Source: a virus
Lineage: Duplodnaviria > Heunggongvirae > Uroviricota > Caudoviricetes
Virus record (IMG/VR): IMGVR_UViG_2878528002_000001
Location: 1 to 34,472 of that record
Direction: 5' to 3' (one strand)
DNA: 34,472 bases
Below are positions 18,838 through 34,472 of this stretch, one piece after another. The translations under genes were made by a program, and so were the position numbers. Within the stretch, counting starts at the first letter, position 1; each line of letters begins with the position of its first letter. The notes under the pieces were generated by a model. That model made no database searches. It was not told the DNA's origin and saw only the letters and a list, made by a program, of their open reading frames with translations.

Positions 18838-21800
18838 TTATGTTCTCCTGAGATTCTTACGCATCTCATTTTGAGTATATTCATTCGATTTCTTCAAAAT
18901 CGTTTTAAGGTCTGGAAGTGTATCACGTACCAGATCTCCCTGAATAGTAATAGGATTGTTATTCGTATAGTTATACACTACATTTTTATCTCCATCACTC
19001 TTGATTTCCGGCATCTTAATTGAAGAAATCATATCTCTGTTCTGATATTGTTCCGCCATATGCACCAAGGTTTCAGTGATATCATTCGGAATAATCATAT
19101 CGGATGCACCAAGTTTGGTCAGCCATCCTTTTCTCGTTACCACAATTTCACGACCATTTTCATTTGTCAGACCAATACTGTTGTGTCCAACATGGTCAGT
19201 ACCTTTTGCGTACTTCTTAATATTGCCCGCGCTCAGATTGGACGCACTGATTCCTAACTGATCAGGAGTAATATTAAACTGCTTTAAGACCTCTGCCAGA
19301 GTATTCATAGCGTCGGCAGCAGAAGCACCAGAGTTATTGATGGCATCATTTATTGCTTTAGACATCTTATCCAGATTGCCACTAAGTTCATTTGACCATT
19401 TTTCGAAATCTTCTTTGAGCTGGTCTTCAAGGTCATCGAGTCCGTCTACCTGCAAATCATAGACGTGATCGCGCACGGTATCGTCAAGGTCATCCTGCGC
19501 GTCCTTTAACTGCGCTTCAAGTTTAGCTTTCTGCGCACGAGATTCTGCATCAGTTACCCCGTCCAATGCATCTATCTGCTGTTGCAGAAGATTGATCTCT
19601 TTTGTCTTACTTTTTAGTTGCTTATCATAATCGTAATATTCCTTTTTCTTTTTCAATGCCTCTTTCCGCGCGTCAATTACCTTAAACAACGCGTCCTGTT
19701 CCTTCTGTGATTGAGTTTTCACGATGGACAGAATCTGCTGTTTATAGGAATTTGCATTCTTGAGGGCATTTTGAATATTGGAATCGTTTTCGGACATCAG
19801 CTCATCATATTTTTGTTCTCCGAAAAGCTTATTATTATAGTCATCTATAATCTGTTGACGCTTCTTAGCATAATTCTGCAAGGTGTCCAGACTGTCATTC
19901 ATGCTCTGCGCGTTTAGAGTAAGAGAGAGTGCGCCCATATCCGTAAGCTGACCAGTATCATAGTCATACATCATTTCTTCCGTTAAAAGGTCATTGATGT
20001 TGTCAAGCTTGGAGATAAACTTATCTGCTTTCTCAATCGCGCGGTCAAACATTTCTTCATACTTAGTGGTAAGCTGTTTCTGTTTGAGGTTTTCAATATC
20101 GGTATCGAATTCCTTTACCGCACTTTCAGCTTCGGCAATTTTAGTGGACATTTCAAGCCATTCGTCAGAACCTTCCTTTATAACTCCACTATCCATTGAA
20201 TTCTTGAGCTGTTCTTGCATTTTAGTAAGTTTTTCAGTTGCAATAGCACGCTGATTTGTCTGTTCTGTAATTTGCGTATCATAGTCAGAAGATTTTGTAT
20301 AGTTGCCGTGTGCTTCGGAAAGATCACGTAACTTTTCTTCTTTCTCAGCAAGTGCTTTCTGATAATCTAAGCGTTTATCATAGTAGTCAGAGATGTTCTC
20401 GAACTTGGTTTGCTCTGCCTCAATTGCTGCTTGTGCGAGTTCCGCTTGAGACTCAGCTGCATTCGCAGCTGCTTCGGCTTCGGCATTTGTTGCTATGTCA
20501 ACCTGTGTGGTTAGTTGCTCAAGGTTTGCCTGTGCATCACGTACTGCATTTGCCGTGTTGGTCAAAGATTTATTATATGCGTCAAGTTGCTTCTTGAGAT
20601 ATTTGCTCTTGATTCCTTTAGTGCTAACAGTTTTGCCCGCATTCAGCGCATTAATCTGTGAGCGATTAAGCTTGTTCTTATACTTTTTAGCAAGAGAAGA
20701 TCCCTTTTTCTTCGCATTAGCTTGATTATTCTTTGCACTCTGTAATTTACTTGCTGCCGCATTTTTCTGTGCAATAGTATCTTGTGTGTTCTTTGTAGCT
20801 TGTGCATAAGCATCTTGATTTGCCTTGTTCTGTTCCTTGGTATTCTGCAATTCCATATCCGTCAGATAATTCTGATAACCTAATGTGTCACCATTAGCAA
20901 GATATTTGGATGACTGTGAATACTGTTTCTGATATTCTGCATAAGTAGCATTTGCACTGTTATATGCAGACCTCGCGGAATTGACAGAACTTCTTGCGAT
21001 GTTAACAGCATTACTTGCGCTCTTAGTTGCAGACTGCGCATGGCTTAATACACTCTTAGAAGAATTGTTCTTCTTTAGCGCGGCATTGTATTTCTGAACA
21101 AGAGTTTTCTTCTTGCCTTTTAGTCCTTTCGTACTGAGTGCCTTGCCAGATGCGATTCTCTTTTTCTCGGAAGAAGTGAGAGTAACAGACTTGTTCTTTT
21201 TAAGTTTCTTCGTTGCACTATTAAGTGCTTTTGTATCTTTATTGGATTGAGATTTTGCACGAGATTCCGTTTTCTGCGCATTACTCAGAGATCTATTAGC
21301 AGAAGATAATCTGCTATTTGCAGAATCAAGATTTGTCTTTGCTGAATTACGTGCGTTTGCAGAGGAATTGACACTAGATTTTATCTCATTGTTCAAATAT
21401 GCTTGCGCTGATCCGCCAAGATTTGCGGTCTTTAATCGTGCTTGAATTGCTGTAAGTCCATTAAAACCATTTTTTAGCTTCTCGATTTTCTTTTCTGCTG
21501 CTTCCGTCGGCATGTTCGCCCACTGCTCGAAAAGCTCAAGCTGCTGATTTTTCAGGTCTTGGACAGCCTGTGTGCATTTTACATATTCATCATAGTATTT
21601 TGCATACTCCTGAATCTTCTCATACTGAGATTTTGTGCCACTCTTCTTACTGGAAGTAGATGTGTTATATTCGGTAATGGCATATTTACCCTCACGAACA
21701 TCTTTCTTAACTTTCGCACTAAGACCAATGGAATTCGCTTTCTTGAGGTATGCATTTGCACCCTTGCTATTGACGGTAATTTCATTGCTTATTGCGGAAA

Positions 21801-24800
21801 TTTGTTTCTTTAACTGAGATGTCTTGAATGCAGAAGACACATAATCATTAATTTTGTCCGCAATCTCTTTGGTTTTGTTAGCAAAATAGGTGAGTTTTCG
21901 TGCCACATAATCAAAGGCAGATGTAGACTTCTTTGTGGACTTAGTGTTTGCTTTGGTTGCGTTTGTATTGGCTTTAGTAGCACTGGTATTATCTCCAGAA
22001 GTTTTTCCAGAAGATTTTGTGTTTCCATATTTCGGACTTGCTAGACCACCTTGAAATTTCAAAGTTGCCGCACCAACGCCAGGAGAATTTGCATGTGCAG
22101 GAGCAATATCGGACAATGATCCATGCGCATAAGCACGAGCAGTTCCATTTGCTTTTCCGTGTGCTAATAAATCCGCAGTTTGCTGTGCATTTAAAACAAT
22201 GTCACCTTTTTTTAATGACTGTGTATGCATTCCAGGTGGAAGCATAAGCCATCTGTCACCACGAATAATAGATTCCTGACCAATTTCATTAACAAGAGCA
22301 GTTTCAGAACGTTGTAACCCGACTTTGCCATTGGCATAAGCAGAACCGTAATTGGTAACATTATAAACTGTGCCAGAAGCATGAGCAGGAGATGATGACG
22401 GAGCAGACATAGTTCCAGATGCTTTTGGTTTTGCAACTGTTCCAAGTGTATAATTAATTACACCCGTAGCAGTCGCGGATTTTGGCGTGGCAACAGTTCC
22501 TAAATCATAATTAATTACACCAGTAGAAACTGTACCGTCAGCCTTTTCCACGTTTCCCTTTTTATAATCGATCGTACCAGTAGATTTTGTGCCGTCCGCT
22601 TTTTCAACTTCACCTTTTTTATAGTTAATGGTTCCGCTAGAAGTAGTGCCATTCGCGTTTTCTACTTTTCCTGCGGTAATATTTCCCTTAACATTAACGG
22701 TTCCAGACGGAGTTCCCGTAACGGAAGTAACATTACCTTTTACATCGACCGTACCTGATGGTTCTCCACTAATAGTCGTTGCGTTAGCATTGACATCAAC
22801 GGTTCCAGATGGAGTTCCGGTAACAGTAGTTACATTCGCATTCACATCTACTGGCTGAGACGGAGTTCCCGTAAGTTGCACAACATTACCCGTCACTGCA
22901 ACTGGCGTTAATCCTGTTCCTGCGGTAAGAGTAGTTACATTCCCAGTAACATCAACACTAGGTTTTGTTCCTTCGGCTGCATTTTGTACCGCACTCTGAG
23001 TTTCAGATTCTACTTGTGAAGTATCTACTTGTGGTGTAACTTTTGCTTCCGTTCCTTCTACAGCAGATTTTGTTTCTGCTTCCACACCATCTGTATTCGC
23101 TTCAACAGGAACCTCAATCTTCTCGCCAGTAATAGCATTAATCAATGCAACAAACTGATCGGAATTCATGGCAACAGTCATATCAATCTGTTCCCCGCTC
23201 ATTTCCTGAATTTCATCACGAACTTGATCTACTTGAGATGCATCACATCCAACAGTAGCCATTAACTCTTGATCGGAAAGTGTAAGTAATTCTTGAAAAG
23301 AATTTCCATTTTCAACCGCAGTTTGAATCTGAACTTGAACTTTTTGTGCTTCTAATGAAGAAATTTCCGTGTCTAAAGTATTAACCGCATCTTCACCATC
23401 AACAGCTACGTCTACATTTACTTTCGCATCTTGTAATTCTTTGATTTTAGAATCAATCTGATCAAGAGACATAGTTGTTTTATCATAGTCAAAATCAATT
23501 CCTGATAAAGTAGAAGAAGTTGATGAGGATTTTTCTTTAAGCTGTTCTTGTGCAGTTTTTCCATCTCCGGTAACGTTTAAATTATCATCAACGGTAATTC
23601 CTGCGGCTGCGGCTTTCTCTTTTGCCATGTTTCTATAAGAATCCGCAAGAGCTTTATTATTTGCATTTTCAGCTGCCTGAACCTGCTCCTGGATATTTTT
23701 AATTTCATCCGCGGCAGTTTTCATTTTCTTCTGCTGGGCTTCTGATCCAAGATTATGCTCGGCATAATAATCCATGCTTTCTTGCAAACCGTCAATCTGT
23801 TGCTTATACTTCGCAACCTCGTCCTCGGCGGCTTTTATCGCAGTGGTATTATATATCGGGTCTTTACCATCTTTTTGCGCCTGGGCATTTTCTTCATTCA
23901 TCTGATCCAGACGTGCTTTAGCCTCAGACCAGTTCTTAGTTGCTTCGGTTGCCTTTAAAATACCATCCTGCATATCGGAGATAACAGTAGTAGTAGCACC
24001 GTAATCTTCGGCACGTCCAAACAATGCCTCTACAACAGGTGTTCCTGTTCCGAGTTTCTGGGCGACTTCTCCGAGATCATGAGTGTTAAGTTCCCATGAC
24101 TGAGTTTCTTCGTTGAAACTTGCCATTGCCTGTCCAGCGGCATCAGTTTTGGTACTAAGGTCTTCGAAGAAATGAACAAGACCGGATTCATCAGATGTGA
24201 GGTATCTTGCGGCTTTCGCGTAGTTTTCCGCAAAGTTTACAGGATCAGTTGCGCCGGAAGGCGATATCATTTTTGCGAAAGATTTGAAATCATCTGTTCC
24301 GATTTCACCAGCGTCCCATGCTTTTTTTGCAGTATCTAAGCCGGAAACCATTGACAGATATTTGTCGCCAGAATTTTCGGTCTGTGTTGCGCGTTGCCAT
24401 TCCGCATAGTCGGAGAAAAGCTGTTTCTGCTGTTGATACTGGGCGTAGTATTGAGATTGCGCCTGTTGTGTGGCATTCAAATCTTCCTGGGCTTGCTTCT
24501 GCTTTTCTAAAGCTTCAACATACTCATCGGATGTTTCTCCGTATTTAGCTTTTAGAATTTCTGCTTGTTTTGCTTGTTTATCAAGTTCATCCGTTTGTTG
24601 TGAGATAGATTCCGCGAAATCTTGTTCTTTGATATCTTTCTGTATATCAAGAAGATTTTCAAGCTGAGAATTATTTAATTTAACGCCTTTAGACGTGTTT
24701 GTAAATAAACCATCTAAATCAAAATCTTTTAATTCATCAGTAGAATTGATTACATCTTGAACACTACTTTTAACAGCATTAATAGAATCTTTTGATAATC

Positions 24801-26640
24801 CCGTATCAGACATGGAATCAGAGATAGCAGAAGAGATAGTTGAATATTGAGAAGTAATACTTTCTACTGATTTCTGTAAATTTGCAACTGATAATTCAGC
24901 TTGTCTCTTTTGATTCTCAATTTGAGAAATTGCATCGTTATAGGAAAGTTTATGATCAGTGTCTGCATTTGCAATTTCACCAAGAGCCTCTAAATCCTCT
25001 GTATTAAATCTACGAATAGCATCTTCTCTAGTTGTATCACCATATCGAGAAGTAATACTTGTCATCGCATCTTTAACTTTAATCCATTCATCATAAATTC
25101 CAGAAGCTTCTTGTAACTGCTTTTTATTGAATGATTCAGATTTTGCATCTGCTTCGTCTAAAGCTGCGTTTGCAGTAGTATACCAATCTTTTGCAGTATC
25201 TTCTGCGTGATTTTCATTGAAACTAAATAATGAATCAATGGAATCTCGAATATCAGATTTGTCTAATTCATTGACTACATTACTTGCCCATTTCTTGATA
25301 TTATCCGCAGCATTATCTTTATCAGTAAACCCATTGGATTCAAGGTCTTCCATGGTCATAGCATTAATCATAGAAGTAACCTTGCTATCTAAACCATCAT
25401 TATCCAAAATTAAATCCTGATATTTTTTATTTGCCTGTAAAAAACTAGGAATATATTGTTTTAATTCATTTGCAGAGTTATCAACATCACTTTGAAGCTC
25501 GCCAACTCCATCCATTAATGTTGTAAGCGTCTTTGCGGAATCACTACCGGATTTTAATTTTCCATTACTAGAATTCAAATCTTGAATTAAATCTTGAATA
25601 TCCGCCTGTGATAATCCTAAAGTTTGATATGCCTCGCCAAAATCAGAAGCATTAAATCCTGTTTCCGCATTTGTGGACATATTCATGTATTTCTGTAAAT
25701 CAATATAACCAGTCGGCTTATTTCCACCTTTTGTAGAAAATGCTTTGTTATAATCTTTAATAAACTGTTCCAATCCGTCAAGCTGTTTCTGAGAGCCAGC
25801 ATCTTGCCATGGAAGAGTTTTACTGCGCATAACTTCTTCATAAAATTTGCCAGTAACATCTTTTGCTTCTTTGACATTTTTGTTATATGCGTCAAATTTG
25901 GCATTCTTTAATGCAGTTTGCAAATCAGAGACACTTTTTGCCGCGCCAATAATCGGTTTTCCTAAAGAATCGTAGCCAGTAACAAGCTCTGGGAATTGCT
26001 GCGCAATCTGAGAGGAGAGTTGTTGATATTCTTCATAATCTGCACTTGTAAGACTAAGATTCTGTCCGAGATTATTAACGCCTTTAGAAAGTTCTTCATA
26101 TCTTTCAGCATTGGTCTTAACCCATGAAGTAGATTCACTCATTTGCTGATTGATATTCTGGTAATCGCTCAGAACTTCGGAACCTGCTTTAATGGTGTTT
26201 GATTGTTTGTTTACAACATAATCAATACCAGCGGCAGTTGCTTGAAGTCCGGCACTGATTAAAAAATTAGTTCCGACATCTACTGCCACAGCTTTTGCAG
26301 TTTGACCAAATGAAGATAAGCCACTTTTTAATTTTTCCATAATGGTACTGGTATCAATCATTTGCTCACCAGATTCAGCCTGGGACTTTTTGAATTTTTC
26401 TTCTGCTTTCATAGCAGAAGTAGCACTATCTCCATATTGATTAAAAAATTTGATCGTATCCTTTAATCTATCCCCGTATGCTTTTTGTGCGTCTGGTGAT
26501 AAATTACTTGCTTTTAATACGTCTTCATACTTGATATTCCTGTTTCCAGACTGATGTTGTTCATCTATATATGAAAAAGCATTTCTAAAACTTCTACTAT
26601 TATTTATTCCTTTTGATAAACCATCTATTGTATTGTATAC
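18838..26640 (-). CDS. Tape measure protein, exon 2 (2600 codons)
   Basis: Long helical Ala/Gln/Lys-rich ORF with AKGT..GLTNENGREIV-type C-terminal motifs. The frame is open 76 codons upstream of the annotated Met (26412), back to TAG 26643..26641, and that Met has no RBS. Confidence 0.88.
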   Translation of the reverse strand, partial: VYNTIDGLSKGINNSRSFRNAFSYIDEQHQSGNRNIKYEDVLKASNLSPDAQKAYGDRLKDTIKFFNQYGDSATSAMKAEEKFKKSQAESGEQMIDTSTIMEKLKSGLSSFGQTAKAVAVDVGTNFLISAGLQATAAGIDYVVNKQSNTIKAGSEVLSDYQNINQQMSESTSWVKTNAERYEELSKGVNNLGQNLSLTSADYEEYQQLSSQIAQQFPELVTGYDSLGKPIIGAAKSVSDLQTALKNAKFDAYNKNVKEAKDVTGKFYEEVMRSKTLPWQDAGSQKQLDGLEQFIKDYNKAFSTKGGNKPTGYIDLQKYMNMSTNAETGFNASDFGEAYQTLGLSQADIQDLIQDLNSSNGKLKSGSDSAKTLTTLMDGVGELQSDVDNSANELKQYIPSFLQANKKYQDLILDNDGLDSKVTSMINAMTMEDLESNGFTDKDNAADNIKKWASNVVNELDKSDIRDSIDSLFSFNENHAEDTAKDWYTTANAALDEADAKSESFNKKQLQEASGIYDEWIKVKDAMTSITSRYGDTTREDAIRRFNTEDLEALGEIANADTDHKLSYNDAISQIENQKRQAELSVANLQKSVESITSQYSTISSAISDSMSDTGLSKDSINAVKSSVQDVINSTDELKDFDLDGLFTNTSKGVKLNNSQLENLLDIQKDIKEQDFAESISQQTDELDKQAKQAEILKAKYGETSDEYVEALEKQKQAQEDLNATQQAQSQYYAQYQQQKQLFSDYAEWQRATQTENSGDKYLSMVSGLDTAKKAWDAGEIGTDDFKSFAKMISPSGATDPVNFAENYAKAARYLTSDESGLVHFFEDLSTKTDAAGQAMASFNEETQSWELNTHDLGEVAQKLGTGTPVVEALFGRAEDYGATTTVISDMQDGILKATEATKNWSEAKARLDQMNEENAQAQKDGKDPIYNTTAIKAAEDEVAKYKQQIDGLQESMDYYAEHNLGSEAQQKKMKTAADEIKNIQEQVQAAENANNKALADSYRNMAKEKAAAAGITVDDNLNVTGDGKTAQEQLKEKSSSTSSTLSGIDFDYDKTTMSLDQIDSKIKELQDAKVNVDVAVDGEDAVNTLDTEISSLEAQKVQVQIQTAVENGNSFQELLTLSDQELMATVGCDASQVDQVRDEIQEMSGEQIDMTVAMNSDQFVALINAITGEKIEVPVEANTDGVEAETKSAVEGTEAKVTPQVDTSQVESETQSAVQNAAEGTKPSVDVTGNVTTLTAGTGLTPVAVTGNVVQLTGTPSQPVDVNANVTTVTGTPSGTVDVNANATTISGEPSGTVDVKGNVTSVTGTPSGTVNVKGNITAGKVENANGTTSSGTINYKKGEVEKADGTKSTGTIDYKKGNVEKADGTVSTGVINYDLGTVATPKSATATGVINYTLGTVAKPKASGTMSAPSSSPAHASGTVYNVTNYGSAYANGKVGLQRSETALVNEIGQESIIRGDRWLMLPPGMHTQSLKKGDIVLNAQQTADLLAHGKANGTARAYAHGSLSDIAPAHANSPGVGAATLKFQGGLASPKYGNTKSSGKTSGDNTSATKANTNATKANTKSTKKSTSAFDYVARKLTYFANKTKEIADKINDYVSSAFKTSQLKKQISAISNEITVNSKGANAYLKKANSIGLSAKVKKDVREGKYAITEYNTSTSSKKSGTKSQYEKIQEYAKYYDEYVKCTQAVQDLKNQQLELFEQWANMPTEAAEKKIEKLKNGFNGLTAIQARLKTANLGGSAQAYLNNEIKSSVNSSANARNSAKTNLDSANSRLSSANRSLSNAQKTESRAKSQSNKDTKALNSATKKLKKNKSVTLTSSEKKRIASGKALSTKGLKGKKKTLVQKYNAALKKNNSSKSVLSHAQSATKSASNAVNIARSSVNSARSAYNSANATYAEYQKQYSQSSKYLANGDTLGYQNYLTDMELQNTKEQNKANQDAYAQATKNTQDTIAQKNAAASKLQSAKNNQANAKKKGSSLAKKYKNKLNRSQINALNAGKTVSTKGIKSKYLKKQLDAYNKSLTNTANAVRDAQANLEQLTTQVDIATNAEAEAAANAAESQAELAQAAIEAEQTKFENISDYYDKRLDYQKALAEKEEKLRDLSEAHGNYTKSSDYDTQITEQTNQRAIATEKLTKMQEQLKNSMDSGVIKEGSDEWLEMSTKIAEAESAVKEFDTDIENLKQKQLTTKYEEMFDRAIEKADKFISKLDNINDLLTEEMMYDYDTGQLTDMGALSLTLNAQSMNDSLDTLQNYAKKRQQIIDDYNNKLFGEQKYDELMSENDSNIQNALKNANSYKQQILSIVKTQSQKEQDALFKVIDARKEALKKKKEYYDYDKQLKSKTKEINLLQQQIDALDGVTDAESRAQKAKLEAQLKDAQDDLDDTVRDHVYDLQVDGLDDLEDQLKEDFEKWSNELSGNLDKMSKAINDAINNSGASAADAMNTLAEVLKQFNITPDQLGISASNLSAGNIKKYAKGTDHVGHNSIGLTNENGREIVVTRKGWLTKLGASDMIIPNDITETLVHMAEQYQNRDMISSIKMPEIKSDGDKNVVYNYTNNNPITIQGDLVRDTLPDLKTILKKSNEYTQNEMRKNLRRT
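22420..22960 (-). repeat. Tandem peptide repeats inside tape measure exon 2
   Basis: About six ~17-aa units (VDVNANVTTVTGTPSGT) followed by four ~19-aa units (GTINYKKGEVEKADGTKST). Coordinates approximate. Confidence 0.85.
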
Positions 26641-26730
26641 CTACGAAAATAAATATATCTATCATATAATTTTGGATTTATATATAGAATATTGTGTGAT
26701 ATAATGAAAATTAAAAAGGAGTAAAAATAA

Positions 26731-27222
26731 ATGGGAACAGAAGAACGTATTAAACAACATTTAATAATTTGTCCGAGATGTGGTGATATATTTGGATCTC
26801 GGATTCCATACGATCCAAATAAAAAAGAAGTTTGTGTAAGATGTCAATATCCGGATTCGCTAGACACAAAAATGACCGTCGCAGATTTAGATAATTTTTT
26901 GAATAATAGTAAATACGAAGAATGGCATGAAAGACAAAGGGAATTGCGTAAAAAATACACCATAAACAGTAATGTATTTGATCAAGATTTATACAACCAA
27001 ATCATAAAAGAAGAGTATGAGAGATACCATCTCAATGATGATGTTCCAACCAGTACGCCAAAACCAGTAACTAAACATATACCTAAATGCCCTACCTGCG
27101 GCTCAACCAATATTGAGAAAATCTCTGCAACTAAAAAATTAGCTGGTAGTATGCTGTTTGGTTTATTCAGCAAAGATGCTAAGAGTACTTTCCATTGTAA
27201 AAACTGCAACTACAAATGGTAA
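26731..27222 (+). CDS. Double Zn-ribbon protein (intron cargo, antisense)
   Basis: 163 aa with CPRC/CVRC and CPTCGS/CKNC pairs. AAGGAG RBS and an extended -10 TGATATAAT at 26697..26705. Confidence 0.85.
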   Translation: MGTEERIKQHLIICPRCGDIFGSRIPYDPNKKEVCVRCQYPDSLDTKMTVADLDNFLNNSKYEEWHERQRELRKKYTINSNVFDQDLYNQIIKEEYERYHLNDDVPTSTPKPVTKHIPKCPTCGSTNIEKISATKKLAGSMLFGLFSKDAKSTFHCKNCNYKW

Positions 27223-27416
27223 TCATCCAATGTTATATTACCGCTGGCTTTATGCTTAACATATGTAATGCATTTTTCGATTTCCTGATCCGTTGGAACC
27301 GGAACATGTTTTAGTTTCATATAATGTATAAATGATTCTGCCATTAAATAATAATTGCACAACTGTTTTATAAAAAACAAATTTGTCAAGATAAGTATGA
27401 TTATAATAAATAACAT
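27210..27416 (-). CDS. Small membrane protein (intron cargo)
   Basis: 68 aa with a hydrophobic N-terminal helix and AGAAAGG RBS. Converges on the Zn-ribbon gene. Confidence 0.55.
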   Translation of the reverse strand: MLFIIIILILTNLFFIKQLCNYYLMAESFIHYMKLKHVPVPTDQEIEKCITYVKHKASGNITLDDYHL

Positions 27417-27447
27417 ATCGTCGCCTTTCTAAAGATGAGGTTGAATT

Positions 27448-27855
27448 ATGAAATTAAATTTAGACTGCATAAAAGATGTCATGGTGTTTCTGGAAGACAA
27501 TCTTACAGATGACAATGCTTTTGTACCAAATCAAATATATGAATCACTTGAAAAATATTCTTATGAAGATGTCGAATATACTGTCAAGGCTTTATTGTCT
27601 GAAAAATGGATTGCCGGAATAGTACAAGAAATAGGTGGCTTGTATATTGTAAAATCTATTACACCTGATGGACATAATTACTTAAATGCAATAAAAGACG
27701 AATCTATCTATAAAATCATAAAGAAACATTTTGCAACCGCTGGGGCATCTACATTATCATTTCTTACAGTAATTATAAAAGATGTTCTTGTGAAATATGC
27801 AGACAAGCACGATGCGGTTTCTGTGGCACTTCATTATTTTAAGAATCTATTTTAA
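27448..27855 (+). CDS. DUF2513/YjcQ-like winged-helix protein (intron cargo)
   Basis: 135 aa. MKLNLDCIKDVMVFLE start and ITPDGHNYLNAI motif. GAGGT RBS. Confidence 0.78.
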   Translation: MKLNLDCIKDVMVFLEDNLTDDNAFVPNQIYESLEKYSYEDVEYTVKALLSEKWIAGIVQEIGGLYIVKSITPDGHNYLNAIKDESIYKIIKKHFATAGASTLSFLTVIIKDVLVKYADKHDAVSVALHYFKNLF

Positions 27856-28076
27856 TATTTTATCAGAAAACATTAGATAAGGAGTTCAAAGATTCTTTAT
27901 TAAATCCGGTAGAAGAAGAGGAATATGAAGAACCAAAGATTAGATGTCCGAAATGCGGTTCCATTAATATAACAACTGGGCAGTGTGGTTATTCTTTTTT
28001 TACTGGATTTTTAGGATCTAATAAGACTATGAATAGGTGTGGAAATTGCGGGTATAAATGGACACCAAATAAATAG
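27856..28076 (+). pseudogene. 5'-truncated Zn-ribbon gene fragment (not in the ORF track)
   Basis: Frame ..EEPKIRCPKCGSINITTGQCGYSFFTGFLGSNKTMNRCGNCGYKWTPNK* has no start codon between the in-frame stop at 27840 and the Cys motifs. Same architecture as the C-terminus of 26731..27222. Confidence 0.75.
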
Positions 28077-28091
28077 ATATAGAAAAGCAAA

Positions 28092-28115
28092 ATGAGAGGC
28101 AAAATAGCCTCTCAT
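28092..28115. terminator. Perfect 9-bp hairpin, probable terminator
   Basis: ATGAGAGGC-AAAATA-GCCTCTCAT, downstream of the plus-strand cargo genes. The T-rich tail is on the minus side. Confidence 0.6.
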
Positions 28116-28346
28116 ATAATGCTTGTTTGGCGGGATCATGGAGATAACTCCGAATCACCCGTTATTAGAGAATTAAAAAAGACTACACTCGAAGCTCCGC
28201 CTCTATCCAGTCTTAGTAAAATGACAAGGAGTATCCACCACTTATACGCCATCTGCCTACATTTAATTCCCTATAACAATATCTCAGCAAGTGAGCCTAT
28301 ATTAAATGTATAATACTAGGAAAGCAGTAACTCTCTTTTTTTATAC

Positions 28347-28602
28347 AAAAAAAGAACAGCCCATGAAGCTGTTCCAAAAAACTCAACCGTTTTTTGCCAG
28401 TATAAGCAAAATATTCGAATTTATATTACTCTATAATAATATCCAGACAAATATCTCGTCAATATACTGGAAATCGTTGTGAGCCTATAAAAATGCGTCC
28501 ATTTTCAAGCTCAAAAAAGAATACTATTGATATTGAGAAATATCAAACACTACGCAGTGACAGGACACAAACCGTGTATACGACGGGATAATATTTCTAC
28601 TT
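28347..28602 (-). ncRNA. Candidate ~255-nt structured RNA downstream of the PemK-like gene
   Basis: Own promoter (28637..28609) and terminator (28374..28347). Contains 8-bp helices TTGATATT/AATATCAA and CCAGTATA/TATACTGG. No ORF listed in the track. Confidence 0.62.
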
Positions 28603-29406
28603 ATGTTTAATATATCCTTTTCCCTTATTATTGTCAACATGTTTCTTTTTATTTTTCGGTTCTGATTTTAGTCTTTGTTGTTCTAATTTGTTTATTCTGA
28701 ATTTTAAATCATGAACCTGTTTCTCAAGTTCTTTATTTCTTTTTTTATATTCATCATTATTCTTTATAAGAGATTGATGTCTTTGATGAATAGTAGGATA
28801 CATGATTTGAAATACCTGCATTTGTATATCAAACAAAACAGTATCTGAAATTGTTGTAATCTCCTTATCTATCCTTGCACGTGAAATAAATTTTGTGTCA
28901 TTGATAAGCAAAACACAATCTTTAGGAAATCCATCACTCATTAAACCTTGTCTGTATTTTTTATTTCCATTTTTATTATTTGTGGGATGATAACTCTGTG
29001 GAAAAATATCATTACCACTTCGAATAGGAACTACTAAAAATTTATTGTCTTTAACGCCAATGCATAATCCATGGTGATAATATCCCAACTCTCCGGCAAA
29101 TGTGTTTCCATAATCAATATAGTATGTATGTCCTATTTTTGGAATAATTTGTTTTTTATTATCATCGTAAGATACTGTCGTATGACATTTTCTCATCCAA
29201 TTCATATCACTGAATAGTATAGATGCTGCGTCATACGCATTTTGTCTTTTTAACCCCTGAATGTAATTATGCATATACTGAACAGCTGCAAGCATAATTA
29301 CAGAATATTTGATTGATTTATTTGTTTTATTCTTTTCGATATGCTCTGTATATCTCTTTATGTTTGTGACATCACTCCAAATCATATTATCATGATTCAT
29401 TTGCAT
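28597..29406 (-). CDS. PemK/MazF-like endoribonuclease-fold toxin with C-terminal coiled coil (intron cargo)
   Basis: 269 aa. GHTYYIDYGNTFAGELGYYHHGLCI..FLVVPIRS and LINDTKFISRARI resemble the PemK/MazF pattern. Promoter TTGACG-17-CATAAT at 29471..29443. Confidence 0.68.
   Translation of the reverse strand: MQMNHDNMIWSDVTNIKRYTEHIEKNKTNKSIKYSVIMLAAVQYMHNYIQGLKRQNAYDAASILFSDMNWMRKCHTTVSYDDNKKQIIPKIGHTYYIDYGNTFAGELGYYHHGLCIGVKDNKFLVVPIRSGNDIFPQSYHPTNNKNGNKKYRQGLMSDGFPKDCVLLINDTKFISRARIDKEITTISDTVLFDIQMQVFQIMYPTIHQRHQSLIKNNDEYKKRNKELEKQVHDLKFRINKLEQQRLKSEPKNKKKHVDNNKGKGYIKHK
28609..28637 (-). promoter_or_regulatory. sigmaA promoter embedded in the last codons of the PemK-like gene
   Basis: TTGACA (28637..28632)-17 nt-TATATT (28614..28609). 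Confidence 0.72.
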
Positions 29407-29570
29407 ATTTTAGTTCACCATCCAATATTGTGTATTAATATTATTATGTGACAAAATATGACAAACGTCAATTCAGAACATATGTATGCAAACACATATT
29501 TACTAAAATTCATTGACAAAACATTAATTTCATCGTATGTTGAGTATAATATATAGAAGGAGATATTAGT

Positions 29571-29801
29571 ATGAACAATAAAGAAATTAGCAGTAATATA
29601 TCACTTGTCTATCGTGATATAGAAAATACATATTCTGATTCAAAATCTATTTTGGCTGATATTATGAAACATGCAAATGACAATTTTGAAGAAATTGAAA
29701 ATATATATCGTCTTGTTGCAATGATATCTTTTTACAAAAATAATTACAGTCAGAGAGGCGGCGAAATATTATTCGAAGAATTCTCCAAAAATTTCTGTTA
29801 G
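29571..29801 (+). CDS. Hypothetical protein, possibly extended to 29917 by a -1 frameshift
   Basis: AGAAGGAG RBS and promoter TTGACA-17-TATGTT (29513..29541). The -1 frame continues FLLENQIPVRAIPEYY...LGLFYNC*. Confidence 0.65.
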   Translation: MNNKEISSNISLVYRDIENTYSDSKSILADIMKHANDNFEEIENIYRLVAMISFYKNNYSQRGGEILFEEFSKNFC

Positions 29802-30029
29802 AAAACCAAATTCCTGTTAGAGCAATACCCGAATATTATGCCAATGAATACCAAATAGATTATGTCTCACGACTCAATACTGCATATAAAAACCTAGGAT
29901 TATTCTATAATTGCTAATTATATAATTTAGAAGTGGAAGATACTTGTTCTTCCAAAAAAATATTGTGTTGACTCGCGAACATTACTATAAGCAATGACGA
30001 GTAATATAATGCAGAAAATATGTTCTACT

Positions 30030-31330
30030 GTGAATTACTCATGTCTAAAGACACGAGCTTCCTGCTTCTACGTCCTCGTAACCTACTAACTCCACAGGCG
30101 TAAATTTCGGTAATTCCTACCGTATTTTATTTCTATCATGATACTTCTAACATTCTCATTCCTTCGTTAAGAATATTAATTGCAGCATTAATATCACGAT
30201 CATGAACAGTTCCACATTGAGGGCATATCCATTCTCTTACTGATAAGTCTTTTGTATCTTTATTAACAAAGCCACATACATTACAGGTCTGACTTGACGG
30301 TACATATCTACCAATTTTGATATATGTACGTCCATTCCATTCTGCCTTATATGTAATCTGTCTAGTTAATTCATACCATCCACAATCTGAAATAGCTTTT
30401 GCAAGATTATGATTCTTAACCATATTTGATACTGCCAAATCTTCACTAATTACCACTTGGTTTTCGCTGATAAGTTTATGTGATATTTTATGCAAATTGT
30501 CAATTCTGGTGTTATGAATTTTCTCATGAATTCGAGCTATTTTAATTCGTTGCTTATTCCAGTTTTTACTACCTTTTGCTTTATGAAACAGTTTTCTTTG
30601 TTCTTTTGCAAGTTTGTATTCGTATTTCTTAGTAGCACGAATATTGTCAAATTTTTCTCCATCAGAAGTGATAAGTAAATCCTTAATACCTAAGTCAATA
30701 CCAACTGAATTATTATTTTCTTTCATTGGAATATGTTCTGTTTCTACAAGAATTGAAACAAAATATTTTCCAGATGAAATCTGAGATATTGTTGCAGATT
30801 TTATCTTGCCTGTAAATTCTCTATGGATTTTTGCTTTAACCCATTTAAGTTTTGGAAGTTTGATCTTATTGCTTTCAAAAGAAACTTCTATATTCCCATT
30901 TGTAAAATTAGTAGAATATAATTTTTTCTTATTACGTTTACTCTTGAATTTTGGATATCCTGTATGCTCTTTAAAGAACCTCTGGTATGCGGAATCCATA
31001 TTATAAATTGCATTTGTAAGGGCAAACTTGTCAACTTCTTTCAGCCATTCATATTCCTTTTTTAGAACTTGATTAACATAATTGTTACAATCTATTTTGC
31101 TCATAGATTCTTTTTTAGTTTCATATAATTCTTTTCTATACGCTAACATTTGATTATAAACAAATCTACAACATCCAAAAGTTTTCTGAATTTGTTCTTC
31201 TTGTTGCTTATTTGGATAAATCCTATATTTATAAGCCTTTAACATTTACTCATCACCTCCTCACTTATATATTCTCTTTTAATTTGCTAACTCACGACTA
31301 AAGTCACGAGAATGCACAAATTAATGTTTT
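30030..31330 (-). mobile_element. Non-autonomous IS200/IS605-family (IS1341-type, tnpB only) element nested in the intron
   Basis: Related subterminal hairpins CTCGTGACTTTAGTCGTGAG (31310..31291) and CTCGTGTCTTTAGACATGAG (30057..30038). Right end reads ...TAATTCAC. No tnpA. Left end approximate. Confidence 0.85.
30136..31245 (-). CDS. tnpB: RNA-guided endonuclease TnpB
   Basis: 369 aa. KAYKYRIYPN HTH start, RuvC residues GIDLG / SEDL / DRDINAA intact, CNVC..CPQC Zn finger, GGAGG RBS. Confidence 0.96.
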   Translation of the reverse strand: MLKAYKYRIYPNKQQEEQIQKTFGCCRFVYNQMLAYRKELYETKKESMSKIDCNNYVNQVLKKEYEWLKEVDKFALTNAIYNMDSAYQRFFKEHTGYPKFKSKRNKKKLYSTNFTNGNIEVSFESNKIKLPKLKWVKAKIHREFTGKIKSATISQISSGKYFVSILVETEHIPMKENNNSVGIDLGIKDLLITSDGEKFDNIRATKKYEYKLAKEQRKLFHKAKGSKNWNKQRIKIARIHEKIHNTRIDNLHKISHKLISENQVVISEDLAVSNMVKNHNLAKAISDCGWYELTRQITYKAEWNGRTYIKIGRYVPSSQTCNVCGFVNKDTKDLSVREWICPQCGTVHDRDINAAINILNEGMRMLEVS

Positions 31331-31546
31331 TCAAAACGACTATTCTGATGGTATAATTTGCCATGTAGATAGTGAGCGAACGCACCACTCACTTGTGCGT
31401 ATCTACACAGCAACCTATTAACCACACCAAACAAATAAAGGATAGGTGTATTACCATCAGAAGTCTATATGATTCTGGGCGTTCTGCCCTTTATATTTCC
31501 ACTTTTGACCAGAGTGGTGGCTTAACCGCTAGGAAGGAGGTGGAAC

Positions 31547-31738
31547 ATGAAAAAAGCAGAACAGCAATTTGAGCTTGCAAAGTTAGCAATTAATCGAATT
31601 ACAATCGTAGTTGGAGTACTCGCTGTTGTTTGGATGATTTTTGCGCATAATCCGGCAACATTTAAAGCGGCTTTCAATACGAATGAATTCACAGCTGAGA
31701 TTTCTTGTGAGTTTGCAAGCGATTCACCGGAGGAGTAG
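31547..31738 (+). CDS. Small single-TM protein with a long structured leader (intron cargo, antisense)
   Basis: 63 aa, strong AGGAAGGAGGT RBS, TM ITIVVGVLAVVWMIFA. Extended -10 TGGTATAAT at 31349..31357 and terminator at 31800..31831. Confidence 0.7.
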   Translation: MKKAEQQFELAKLAINRITIVVGVLAVVWMIFAHNPATFKAAFNTNEFTAEISCEFASDSPEE

Positions 31739-31799
31739 AATTACAAATCCGGTAGCATGGGGTGAAACCCATGTGATGTTTTTGTTTCACTTCTTTATA

Positions 31800-31831
31800 G
31801 ATGCCGTGGCTCATTTGTCACGGTGTCTTTT
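31800..31831 (+). terminator. Rho-independent terminator just before the intron core
   Basis: GATGCCGTGGC-loop-GTCACGGTGTC-TTTT. Confidence 0.65.
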
Positions 31832-32401
31832 CAATTGCAACCATTTTATTCTGCTCATATTTTAGTTCTCCGCAGTGGAGATATCCGAAGTTGCGTCGGA
31901 TTGGTATTCACTCTATATTCGCACATCGCAACCATACCAATTTGCAATGCTCCAAAAAATGCTGACAGAAGGGTAGTATATAGAAACTATCCCTGAATGA
32001 TTCGGGCATCTGTCTTCCCTATCGCTAGAGTGCATCTTCGTGATTCCTGATGAAACCACGCTTTCGTTACGCTCGTTGAGGTCGGTATCCTTTCTTATTA
32101 GAACGAAACCCTACCTGCGGATTACCTCGTGTTTTGAATTATTCCCTTACCTCATGCTTTCACATTCGCCACCTATTCCTATTAAGAATAGGTTTGAGAT
32201 CAAAACCATGTGACGCAGACTTTTGAACTGCGAAGGTTCCCCGTCCTACTGTTCATAGTAGGAGAGTAATGCATTACCATTGCTCCATATTAGAAAGTCA
32301 CTATAGAAGTCCTTGTCTTTTGACTCGTACACGTTACCGTTAAACTTCTAAGCGGCATAAGTCATTTGAAAAATGCATGGGGCGAATTCCCATGTACTCT
32401 T

Positions 32402-34472
32402 ACCGCTGCCTGTTTTGCCCTGGAAGATTCCAAGACCGATCGCTGCTGTATTTAACATACCAATCGAACTTGTCAAATTTGTAAACAAATTTAATAAGTT
32501 TGTGCCACCATCTACTAATCCTTTAAACATATCAGAAGAAAACGTAGTCGTAGCCATTTTCTGAAATGCAGATTCAAACTGTTGTTGTTTAGCTTCAATA
32601 GATTCTAGCCATCTATCCTGTTCCTGTTGCGCAGAACCATCAGAATTTAATGTGTCTTGATATGCTTTTTGAACTTGTCCAGATTGGAATCCTTGAATTA
32701 ATGCAGCAATTTGGTTGCCTCTATTCTTACCTGCTAATTTTTCGAGTAATTCCGCTCTATTTTTATCAGTCAAATCATCATAGATTTCACTGATTTCTTC
32801 CATAAGAGTATATGTATCTTTATATGTCTGCTTTGTATCATCAGTAAACAGACTAATGCCGCCAGGTGTTTTTGCCGTTTTTGTTAAGTCAGCAATTGCA
32901 CCTGAAAGTTCTTCTGTGTCATTGGTGTATGAATCGGTTTCTTCGTCATAACCTCTTACCCTCATGGCGAGGATCTTTAGTGCATTTCCAGCTTCTGGTG
33001 CACTCTGCGTGATTTCTGACATTCCTGTAAGCATAGCTAGAGAATGACCAAGGTCGTTTCCTGCGGTTGCTAAAGAAGATGCCGAATTGGATAGTCCCTC
33101 ACCTAAATCTGCACTTGAAGTTGCGAAATTATTACCCAGAATATTTAATTGATCAATTATAGATTCTGCATCTGATGCTTGAATATTAAACGCCTTCATA
33201 GCAGTAACCATATCGGAAACTGCCGTGTTGTCACTAACTTCACCAACATTTGCATACATTGAACTTAATTTGGAAAGTTGCTCAGAATCATCTAATGAGT
33301 ATCCAAGTTTTGACCATTCAGATGTTTGGGAAATATAAGAAGATATGCTTCTTCCTAATTCAGGCGCATTTTTAGAAGCAGTATCAAGATATTTAGAATA
33401 ACGAGACTGTGATTCATCTGTTACTTTATACAGGTTCGTCATTGCTGAATCAACGTCTTTGACCGAACTAATCACTTTAGACGGAACTTCCATTATTACA
33501 TTTTGAATCGCACCATAAATTCCTGCGAACTGTCCGATTTGCTTAAAAGCTCGCTTGAATTCATCTATTCCAGATTTTCCAGTTAATCCTTCTGCGGAAA
33601 TCCTCGACTGAATATTCTTAAACGCAGTATCAAGATTTGCCTTTTCTTCCACAGTGGAAACTTGTTGGTACTGTTTTTCAAGTTCTTTTAATGTCGCCCC
33701 ATATTTTTTTACAGCTTTACTGTTTTCTTCGTAATATGTAGCAACTTTATTTGCCGACTGAATAGCAACACCTGGAGCAAGTGTCTTTGACTGCGTATCA
33801 CGAATTTCAGAAAGAGTATTTTTAAACGTGTCGCCAGCTTTAGTCATTTTTTCAAAACTTTCTGCAAGCTGAGTTCCGTTTAAGGAAGCGTTTCCACTAA
33901 AATGATTCTGTAATTTGGACAATTCTTCGTTGTATGTCTGAAGCGCGGCTTTTGCTTTTGTTATATTCTCAGAATCCTGCCCATTATAAGCTGATAACTG
34001 TTTTGCCATCCTTGAAGATCTGGCATCATAAGTTCCAGTTTCAATATTATATTTAATCTGATTTCTATTAGATTTTGTGGCAGAATTTTGTGCTTTATCA
34101 GTAACTGAAGCTCTAGCCTTATCGACCACAGAAGCGGTTTGCATTCTTCTTTGGTTAAGTATTCTGGATTGTTCTTTTGGAGTATACACATCTGTATACT
34201 GTTTCATTTCACTCTTTAGACGTTTACTTTCCGCCTGTAATTGCTGTCTCTCTCTCTTTAGAGAATCAACAGTAGCAGAATTTCCGGATGCTTGATTTTT
34301 TATAATATCTGCTTTATTTTTATTAAGCTGATCAACATTTTTTAATTGTTGTTTGAGTAAATCATTTGCATTTTTCTTGCGTTGAGTAATTAGAGCCTTT
34401 TCTTGCCTTTCCTGTTCATCATATAGTTTTTTAGCATCACTCATCGCATCCTTGTTTCTGATACTTTTTTTG
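32402..34472 (-). CDS. Tape measure protein, exon 1 (TP901-type core; 5' end outside the window)
   Basis: VKDVDSAMTNLYKVTD, WSKLGYS, LGNNFATSSADLGEGL and LAGKNRGNQIAAL are TMP core motifs. The frame is open to the window edge. The unspliced ORF would stop 17 codons into the intron (32348). Confidence 0.92.

Follow-up and report, generated by a model that had tools for sequence, protein, structure and literature searches.

A candidate group I intron bearing a changing multi-gene cargo in the split tape-measure gene of an SPbeta-like provirus

Phage genes for the tape-measure protein (TMP) are known to contain group I introns, as described for TMP-IVS1, TMP-IVS2 and TMP-IVS3 in prophages of the Bacillus cereus group (PMC2504315), and the TMP transcript of vibriophage ICP1, variable in its intron content, has been shown by reverse transcription PCR to be spliced (PMC10448857). 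I consider here an interrupted TMP gene in the first 34,472 nucleotides (nt) of the IMG/VR record IMGVR_UViG_2878528002_000001, a gut provirus of 174,673 bases; that whole stretch will be referred to as the window. The interruption, 5,761 nt on the minus strand (26641-32401), is predicted from comparison with relatives to be a group I intron, and most of its length is taken up by genes of other kinds, which I will call cargo. The comparison shows a gene split in two, a conserved structured core at one of the insert's ends, conserved signals at the other, variable cargo between them and no match to a homing endonuclease. To my mind the best explanation, with a probability of about two in three, is a divergent group I intron that is spliced in cis over the cargo loop.

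The phage has an SPbeta-like gene set, including a polymerase gene of the YonO/RdRP type, and close protein relatives are found in genomes of Lachnospiraceae. The insert resembles the TMP introns of Bacillus and ICP1 in the class of host gene, the in-frame insertion and the early stop within the intron. It differs in its load, since the Bacillus and ICP1 introns contain an HNH or GIY-YIG gene, a remnant of one or nothing, whereas in the family considered here the load is 2-8 kb long and consists of unrelated genes, which lie on both strands and come with terminators. The Bacillus TMP introns also belong to classes IA1 and IA2, while the core in the window lacks the P7.1/P7.2 hairpins and is missed by Rfam. 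The IStrons CdISt1 and BcISt1 share with the window a 5' ribozyme, coding DNA after domain 9, a distant 3' splice site and TnpB, but in them the end of the insertion sequence (IS) is the end of the intron, and the unit transposes to many sites (PMC4227781); in the window the intron occupies a fixed site, and the IS within it arrived late and is missing from most relatives. The Discosoma ND5 intron, an organelle group I intron of about 18 kb (PMC3073962), likewise holds several genes unrelated to mobility in an intron loop and depends on long-range pairing of splice sites, but its genes are essential mitochondrial ones within P8, in contrast to fast-changing accessory genes in the P9 region. 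Finally, the late region of SPbeta (yomJ-yomL, yonI; NC_001884), itself a YonO-encoding phage, has extra genes among those for tail and head, some antisense and with stem-loops; these sit between genes, the TMP gene yomI being uninterrupted, whereas the cargo of the window sits within TMP. Phage TMP group I introns, IStrons and multi-gene organelle introns are all known, and what appears to be new is a phage intron that contains a variable island of several accessory genes, an arrangement of which no description was found in the literature searched, a search that left most subscription journals uncovered.

On the minus strand lie two long frames, 32348-34768 and 18838-26640, whose matches to phrog_4211 are consecutive (positions 554-936 and 990-1603, respectively). 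The first provides exon 1, of which the window holds the 3' part (32402-34472; PhageMin_Tail, E 6e-22), the start of the gene lying beyond it at genome position 34768. The second is exon 2, 2,600 codons long. Joined, the exons give a frame of 3,389 amino acids (aa) without a stop, collinear with phrog_4211. The first methionine of exon 2 is codon 77, without a ribosome-binding site (RBS), and no start or RBS is conserved among relatives, in which the position of the first methionine ranges from codon 8 to codon 123. The protein can nonetheless be aligned upstream of that methionine, which argues against a second protein with a start of its own. Uninterrupted TMPs compared with the cargo of the window gave no match anywhere inside it, so no additional exon is indicated. 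Gene callers begin exon 2 at the methionine at 26412 and so drop 76 codons (26412-26640) that are conserved in relatives.

The first 450 nt or so of the insert fold as a group I core, with P1 bearing a U.G pair and with P3 through P9. In P1 (32351-32407) the last six bases of the exon (32407-32402) pair with a guide at 32356-32351, placing U.G at the 5' splice site (32402/32356), and the P10 strand (32357-32359) adjoins the guide. P2 through P8 (32027-32350) include a P3 of 5 base pairs (bp), a P4 of 4 bp, a branched P5, and P6, P7 and P8, with two extra hairpins between P3 and P4. P5, P6 and the joining segments are canonical, and P5 covaries. P7 (32076-32070 with 32032-32027) has six positions, with the usual bulged base (here C), the G-C pair of the guanosine-binding site, one compensatory pair and one C.A mismatch; together with P3 it makes up the pseudoknot. 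After its 5' strand, the 3' strand of P3 and P8 come within four bases, leaving no P7.1/P7.2 hairpins. Beyond these lie the invariant 5' strand of P9.0 (GCGA, 32022-32025), which pairs with 26646-26643, the P9 stem with an inner hairpin (31964-32014), and the 5' strand of a thermodynamically weak stem (31951-31957), which pairs with 26676-26670 and is predicted to close the cargo loop.

The support for this fold comes from an alignment of 12 cores, 76-94% identical to that of the window. RNAalifold, given no user input, recovered P1, P2, P3, P4, P5, P6, P8 and P9 (it cannot draw P7 together with P3). All six pairs of P1 are invariant, and over 98 pairs 99% of the cells are paired. Two-sided changes occur in 24 pairs, as compared to 11.6 in shuffles and 0-3 with partners slid, but since the 12 cores amount to about three types, these counts are not independent and 24 is not to be read as a probability. 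The P9 stem is among the parts with two-sided changes (helices 16-17).

The strongest evidence for the predicted intron is the conservation of its 3' splice site. The 3' end (26641-26676) comprises the second strand of the closing stem (26676-26670), the second strand of P9.0 (26646-26643) and a terminal G at 26641; its motif is unique downstream of the core in the window and immediately precedes the exon-2 frame throughout the close relatives. Wherever a close relative extends into exon 2, that frame opens straight after UCGUAG (UCGCAG in the relative L046). The eight types of 3' end and exon 2, which differ in both the cargo upstream and the exon sequence downstream, all keep UCGYAG. Seven of them have UCGU as the P9.0 partner, and the change to UCGC in L046 preserves the pairing with GCGA. 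Exon 2 begins with RUA in all eight, and RUA pairs with the guide to form P10. The closing stem is UUUUGGA/UCCAAAA in the window, L045 and L046 and has a UGGG/CCCA core in the other close relatives, so that a change in the strand 5' of the terminal motif is accompanied by one in the partner strand, at the end of the ribozyme core.

More distant TMP loci are mostly broken at about the same position, only L004, L033, L036 and L040 being unbroken. The joints of 16 broken loci of this sister clade, placed by protein motif alone, all have U before the insert and G at its end (16/16), and the joined peptide (of the type KNFx-QLKDLG) aligns without a gap to the uninterrupted form (KNFEQLKNAS). A guide pairs with the joined junction over 8-15 bp, with a P10 longer than that of the window, and changes in the guide go with changes in the exons, over distances of up to 7.4 kb. 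A sequence hidden Markov model of the window's core detected no sister-clade core, and since the cores are not detectably related in sequence, these inserts (1.3-7.4 kb) may be distinct introns, located where the window's intron is or close by. The uninterrupted alleles require at least three gains or losses on the exon-1 tree (33 rows; L010, L052, L054, L057 and short matches were left out). Two skipping-rope RNAs lie within the intron cargo of one sister-clade locus (L005:12072-12258).

An earlier note on this DNA, made from the sequence of the window by itself, had described the insert as an intron serving as a landing pad where accessory genes are gained and swapped, and had expected core and insertion codon to be conserved while cargo varied. 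Its observation is confirmed and its interpretation partly supported by the relatives. In 18 complete close introns, core and insertion codon are conserved and the terminal UCGYAG is kept, whereas the length runs from 2.4 to 7.9 kb and the cargo varies, with 44 clusters of open reading frames (ORFs), some of them surely spurious short ones. Nothing came to light of the outcomes that the note had named as fatal: the cargo varies, the ORFs scanned gave no homing endonuclease, and there was no match between cargo and uninterrupted TMPs. The intron is not, however, the only pad for such genes. A MazF-fold protein of the cargo has homologues in other islands and also upstream of a TMP that is not interrupted, which makes the cargo accessory material of a general sort, and the late region of SPbeta has its antisense genes and stem-loops without an intron. 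L045 provides an example of turnover: its core is 99% identical to that of the window, but the TnpB element is absent and the site, after TTGAAA, is empty, so the element is a 1,299-nt insertion at 31328-30030. None of the 17 close introns other than that of the window has TnpB, which is, by this comparison, an independent IS605 insertion and not functional intron cargo. Relatives have among their cargo genes of the AIPR/AbiU-like, GmrSD, PemK, PBECR, NYN, DUF3800, Bro/ANT and protease kinds. Defence-type genes are therefore a real part of the cargo in the family, while for the window itself they are no more than a suggestion.

The arrangement is consistent with the following course of events. 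During lytic growth a single long late transcript would run across exon 1, the core, 5.3 kb of cargo and exon 2, probably made by the phage's own YonO-like single-chain RNA polymerase, whose gene, with a DFDSD motif, lies at genome 62370-65219 (L097). P1 would dock the 5' splice site in the core, while the closing stem, P9.0 and a P10 of 3 bp would draw the terminal G across a distance of 5.4 kb, and the product of splicing would be the TMP of 3,389 aa. Constraint would fall only on the first 450 nt or so and on some 35 nt at the 3' end, leaving the cargo loop free to change, and recombination and IS insertion would add and swap independently expressed accessory genes there, which may be active in the lysogen and of some benefit.

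Several observations weigh against this reading, besides the small number of core types mentioned above. The 3-bp P10 of the window is matched on energy by 38% of random cargo positions, and its closing stem is no better on energy than the cargo background, 89% of which is as good. P4 has just four standard pairs where six are expected, and the C.A mismatch in P7 is present in 7 of the 12 sequences. The Rfam group I model matched neither the window (E 1) nor the core region (E 10), and no group I match appeared in scans of eight relatives or in three sister loci; a match to Rfam is a test against a library, not a structural definition, and the P3-P4 hairpins, the four-pair P4 and the C.A of P7 may explain the miss. 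The same three features leave the activity of the core uncertain. A search for an intronless allele in the window's own clade returned only unrelated matches. Lastly, sense-strand terminators lie in the cargo, between core and exon 2, and call for either read-through by the late polymerase or splicing in trans.

Splicing in trans is the main rival, although an unlikely one. It supposes that the intron is split in the P9 loop, the transcript of exon 1 and core ending at a cargo terminator and a second transcript, which starts just upstream of the closing stem, providing exon 2 and the terminal G; two transcription units would then flank the cargo. Organelles have trans-spliced group I introns. 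Of 16 cargos, 12 contain sense-strand terminators (that of the window has two), whereas shuffles and exon 2 contain none, and in 33 of 33 loci the last cargo ORF is antisense, its start being near the 3' splice site (at most 95 nt away in 32), as expected of divergent promoters. No good sense promoter was found upstream of 26676, however; a stem as short and weak as the closing one suits the assembly of two molecules poorly, and the two halves are collinear and on the same strand in every locus. The YonO of SPbeta, moreover, is highly processive, and the late genes of that phage are transcribed as one operon (PMC5467207). The YonO-like enzyme of the present phage may, by analogy, do the same and read through the terminators of the cargo.

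It is also unlikely, and I would place it behind splicing in trans, that no productive splicing takes place here, the insert being either a decayed relic or an ordinary moron site between two separately translated pieces of TMP. The Rfam result and the short P4, the C.A of P7 and the weak P10 can be cited in favour of this, as can the occurrence of the same cargo families outside introns and the chance that the provirus record is defective. Against it stand a core conserved with compensatory changes, a terminal motif and RUA kept beside unrelated flanks in eight types, an exon 2 without conserved start or RBS, and the fact that the C.A variant of P7 is common to many genomes. An IStron (a fusion of group I intron and IS605), or TnpB as the homing nuclease of the intron, is highly improbable, for despite the IStron-like order of a group I core and then an intact IS200/IS605 TnpB gene (PMC4227781), the right end of the IS, at 30030, falls 3.4 kb before the terminal G with cargo and not the exon junction beyond it, the core lacks P7.1/P7.2, TnpB is absent from 17 other close introns, and both ideas are largely refuted by the empty site of L045 next to its nearly identical core.

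A wider picture can be drawn, plausible but somewhat less likely than not. SPbeta-like phages of gut Clostridia may widely use non-canonical group I ribozymes, invisible to standard models, to splice an essential tail gene, whether in cis across as much as 8 kb of cargo on two strands or in trans, with the loop a long-lived, selected hotspot for exchange of defence or toxin genes expressed in the lysogen and with the promoter of the last antisense gene built into the 3' splice region. The load of phage and bacterial group I introns would then range from a single mobility gene up to an island of several genes that changes. Many pairs annotated in gut prophages as two adjacent tape-measure genes would be predicted to be one gene, which would affect annotation and estimates of tail length. 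The stretch from core to terminal G would offer a fixed address for mining unknown accessory and candidate defence genes, and the system a natural test case for long-range capture of a 3' splice site and for the handling of host terminators by YonO-type polymerases.

In the window the cargo lies between P9 (32014-31964), on its 5' side, and the terminal G (26641), on its 3' side. Within 26700-31860 the earlier note's count of seven ORFs and one gene fragment in both orientations holds, the fragment being the 3' end of a Zn-ribbon gene without a start. The note also gave most of these genes signals of their own. An RBS-like site is indeed found at each of the seven, and terminator-like hairpins are enriched (9 as compared to 2.2 ± 1.3 in shuffles), but promoter-like sites, in this AT-rich DNA, are not (37 as compared to 33.4 ± 4.9). 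As the note maintained, no LAGLIDADG, GIY-YIG or HNH family was matched by the scanned ORFs in Pfam, NCBIfam or PHROGs, a family-level scan that a remote nuclease fold in a small ORF could escape; PHROGs does recognise HNH genes in further insertions that relatives have in TMP. Its identification of DUF2513, TnpB, Zn-ribbon and PemK-like products stands, but the RNA it placed beside the PemK-like gene had no match in Rfam, contained no repeat array and was not conserved in four homologous loci. As to the defence-like character it saw in the cargo, PADLOC named no defence system there and gave no convincing match other than to TnpB/Cas12-like models.

Taken in the direction of TMP transcription, the first gene (31547-31738, plus strand) encodes a 63-aa protein with a hydrophobic segment; it has a strong RBS and a terminator at 31799-31828, and its DNA is 98% identical in L045. 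The IS200/IS605-type element (30030-31328, minus) lacks TnpA and encodes TnpB at 30136-31245 (NF038281, E 4.6e-152). Elsewhere in the genome are two more TnpB genes (67366-68484 and 149414-150520), 63-65% identical to it in DNA. A 76-aa protein of no assigned family (29571-29801, plus) has had its 3' end replaced with respect to the 87-aa homologue in L046. Next comes the MazF/PemK-fold protein of 269 aa (28597-29406, minus), with N-terminal helices and a long C-terminal helix (model pLDDT 82.8); Foldseek matches it to MazF/MoxT/YdcE (E 1.6e-5), and Pfam does not. It has 34 homologues and no evident antitoxin; neighbours vary from homologue to homologue, and conservation is lacking in the downstream DNA. 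In L091-L093 a 1,062-aa RdRP-domain gene and a MazF-fold homologue stand immediately upstream of a TMP gene called as a single piece.

The two sense-strand terminator-like hairpins (28353-28375 and 28092-28115, both minus) follow. An ORF at 28092-28313 was rejected as a gene, as it has no RBS, starts within a terminator hairpin and belongs to no family. The Zn-ribbon relic (27880-28076, plus, the 5' boundary approximate; phrog_2546, E 3.7e-6) is 85% identical in DNA to L046, where the gene is intact, probably a sign of replacement by recombination. Downstream are a DUF2513 protein of 135 aa (27448-27855, plus; PF10711, E 2.6e-17) and the least certain gene, an ORF of 68 aa with a hydrophobic N-terminus (27210-27416, minus), which has an RBS-like site, no family and no homologue among the relatives. 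Twenty-four nt at 27226-27249, 79% like the 5' splice site and considered as a cryptic target of P1, are probably a chance likeness, as the cargo contains the hexamer three times. The last gene (26731-27222, plus, antisense to TMP) encodes a double Zn-ribbon protein of 163 aa, and its promoter region overlaps the 3' elements of the intron. In relatives, too, the last cargo ORF is often a Zn-ribbon gene whose promoter and RBS region overlaps those elements, and exon-2 N-termini vary along with it.

A second, more upstream insertion in exon 1, with an HNH-type endonuclease gene in each case, is present at L007:7462-9124 and L006:1865-3457, and similar breaks occur in L015, L016, L018, L021 and L039-L043; conventional mobile introns seem to coexist with the cargo intron in the TMP genes of relatives. 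A RAGATH-18 RNA lies just upstream of TMP at L001:8334-8406.

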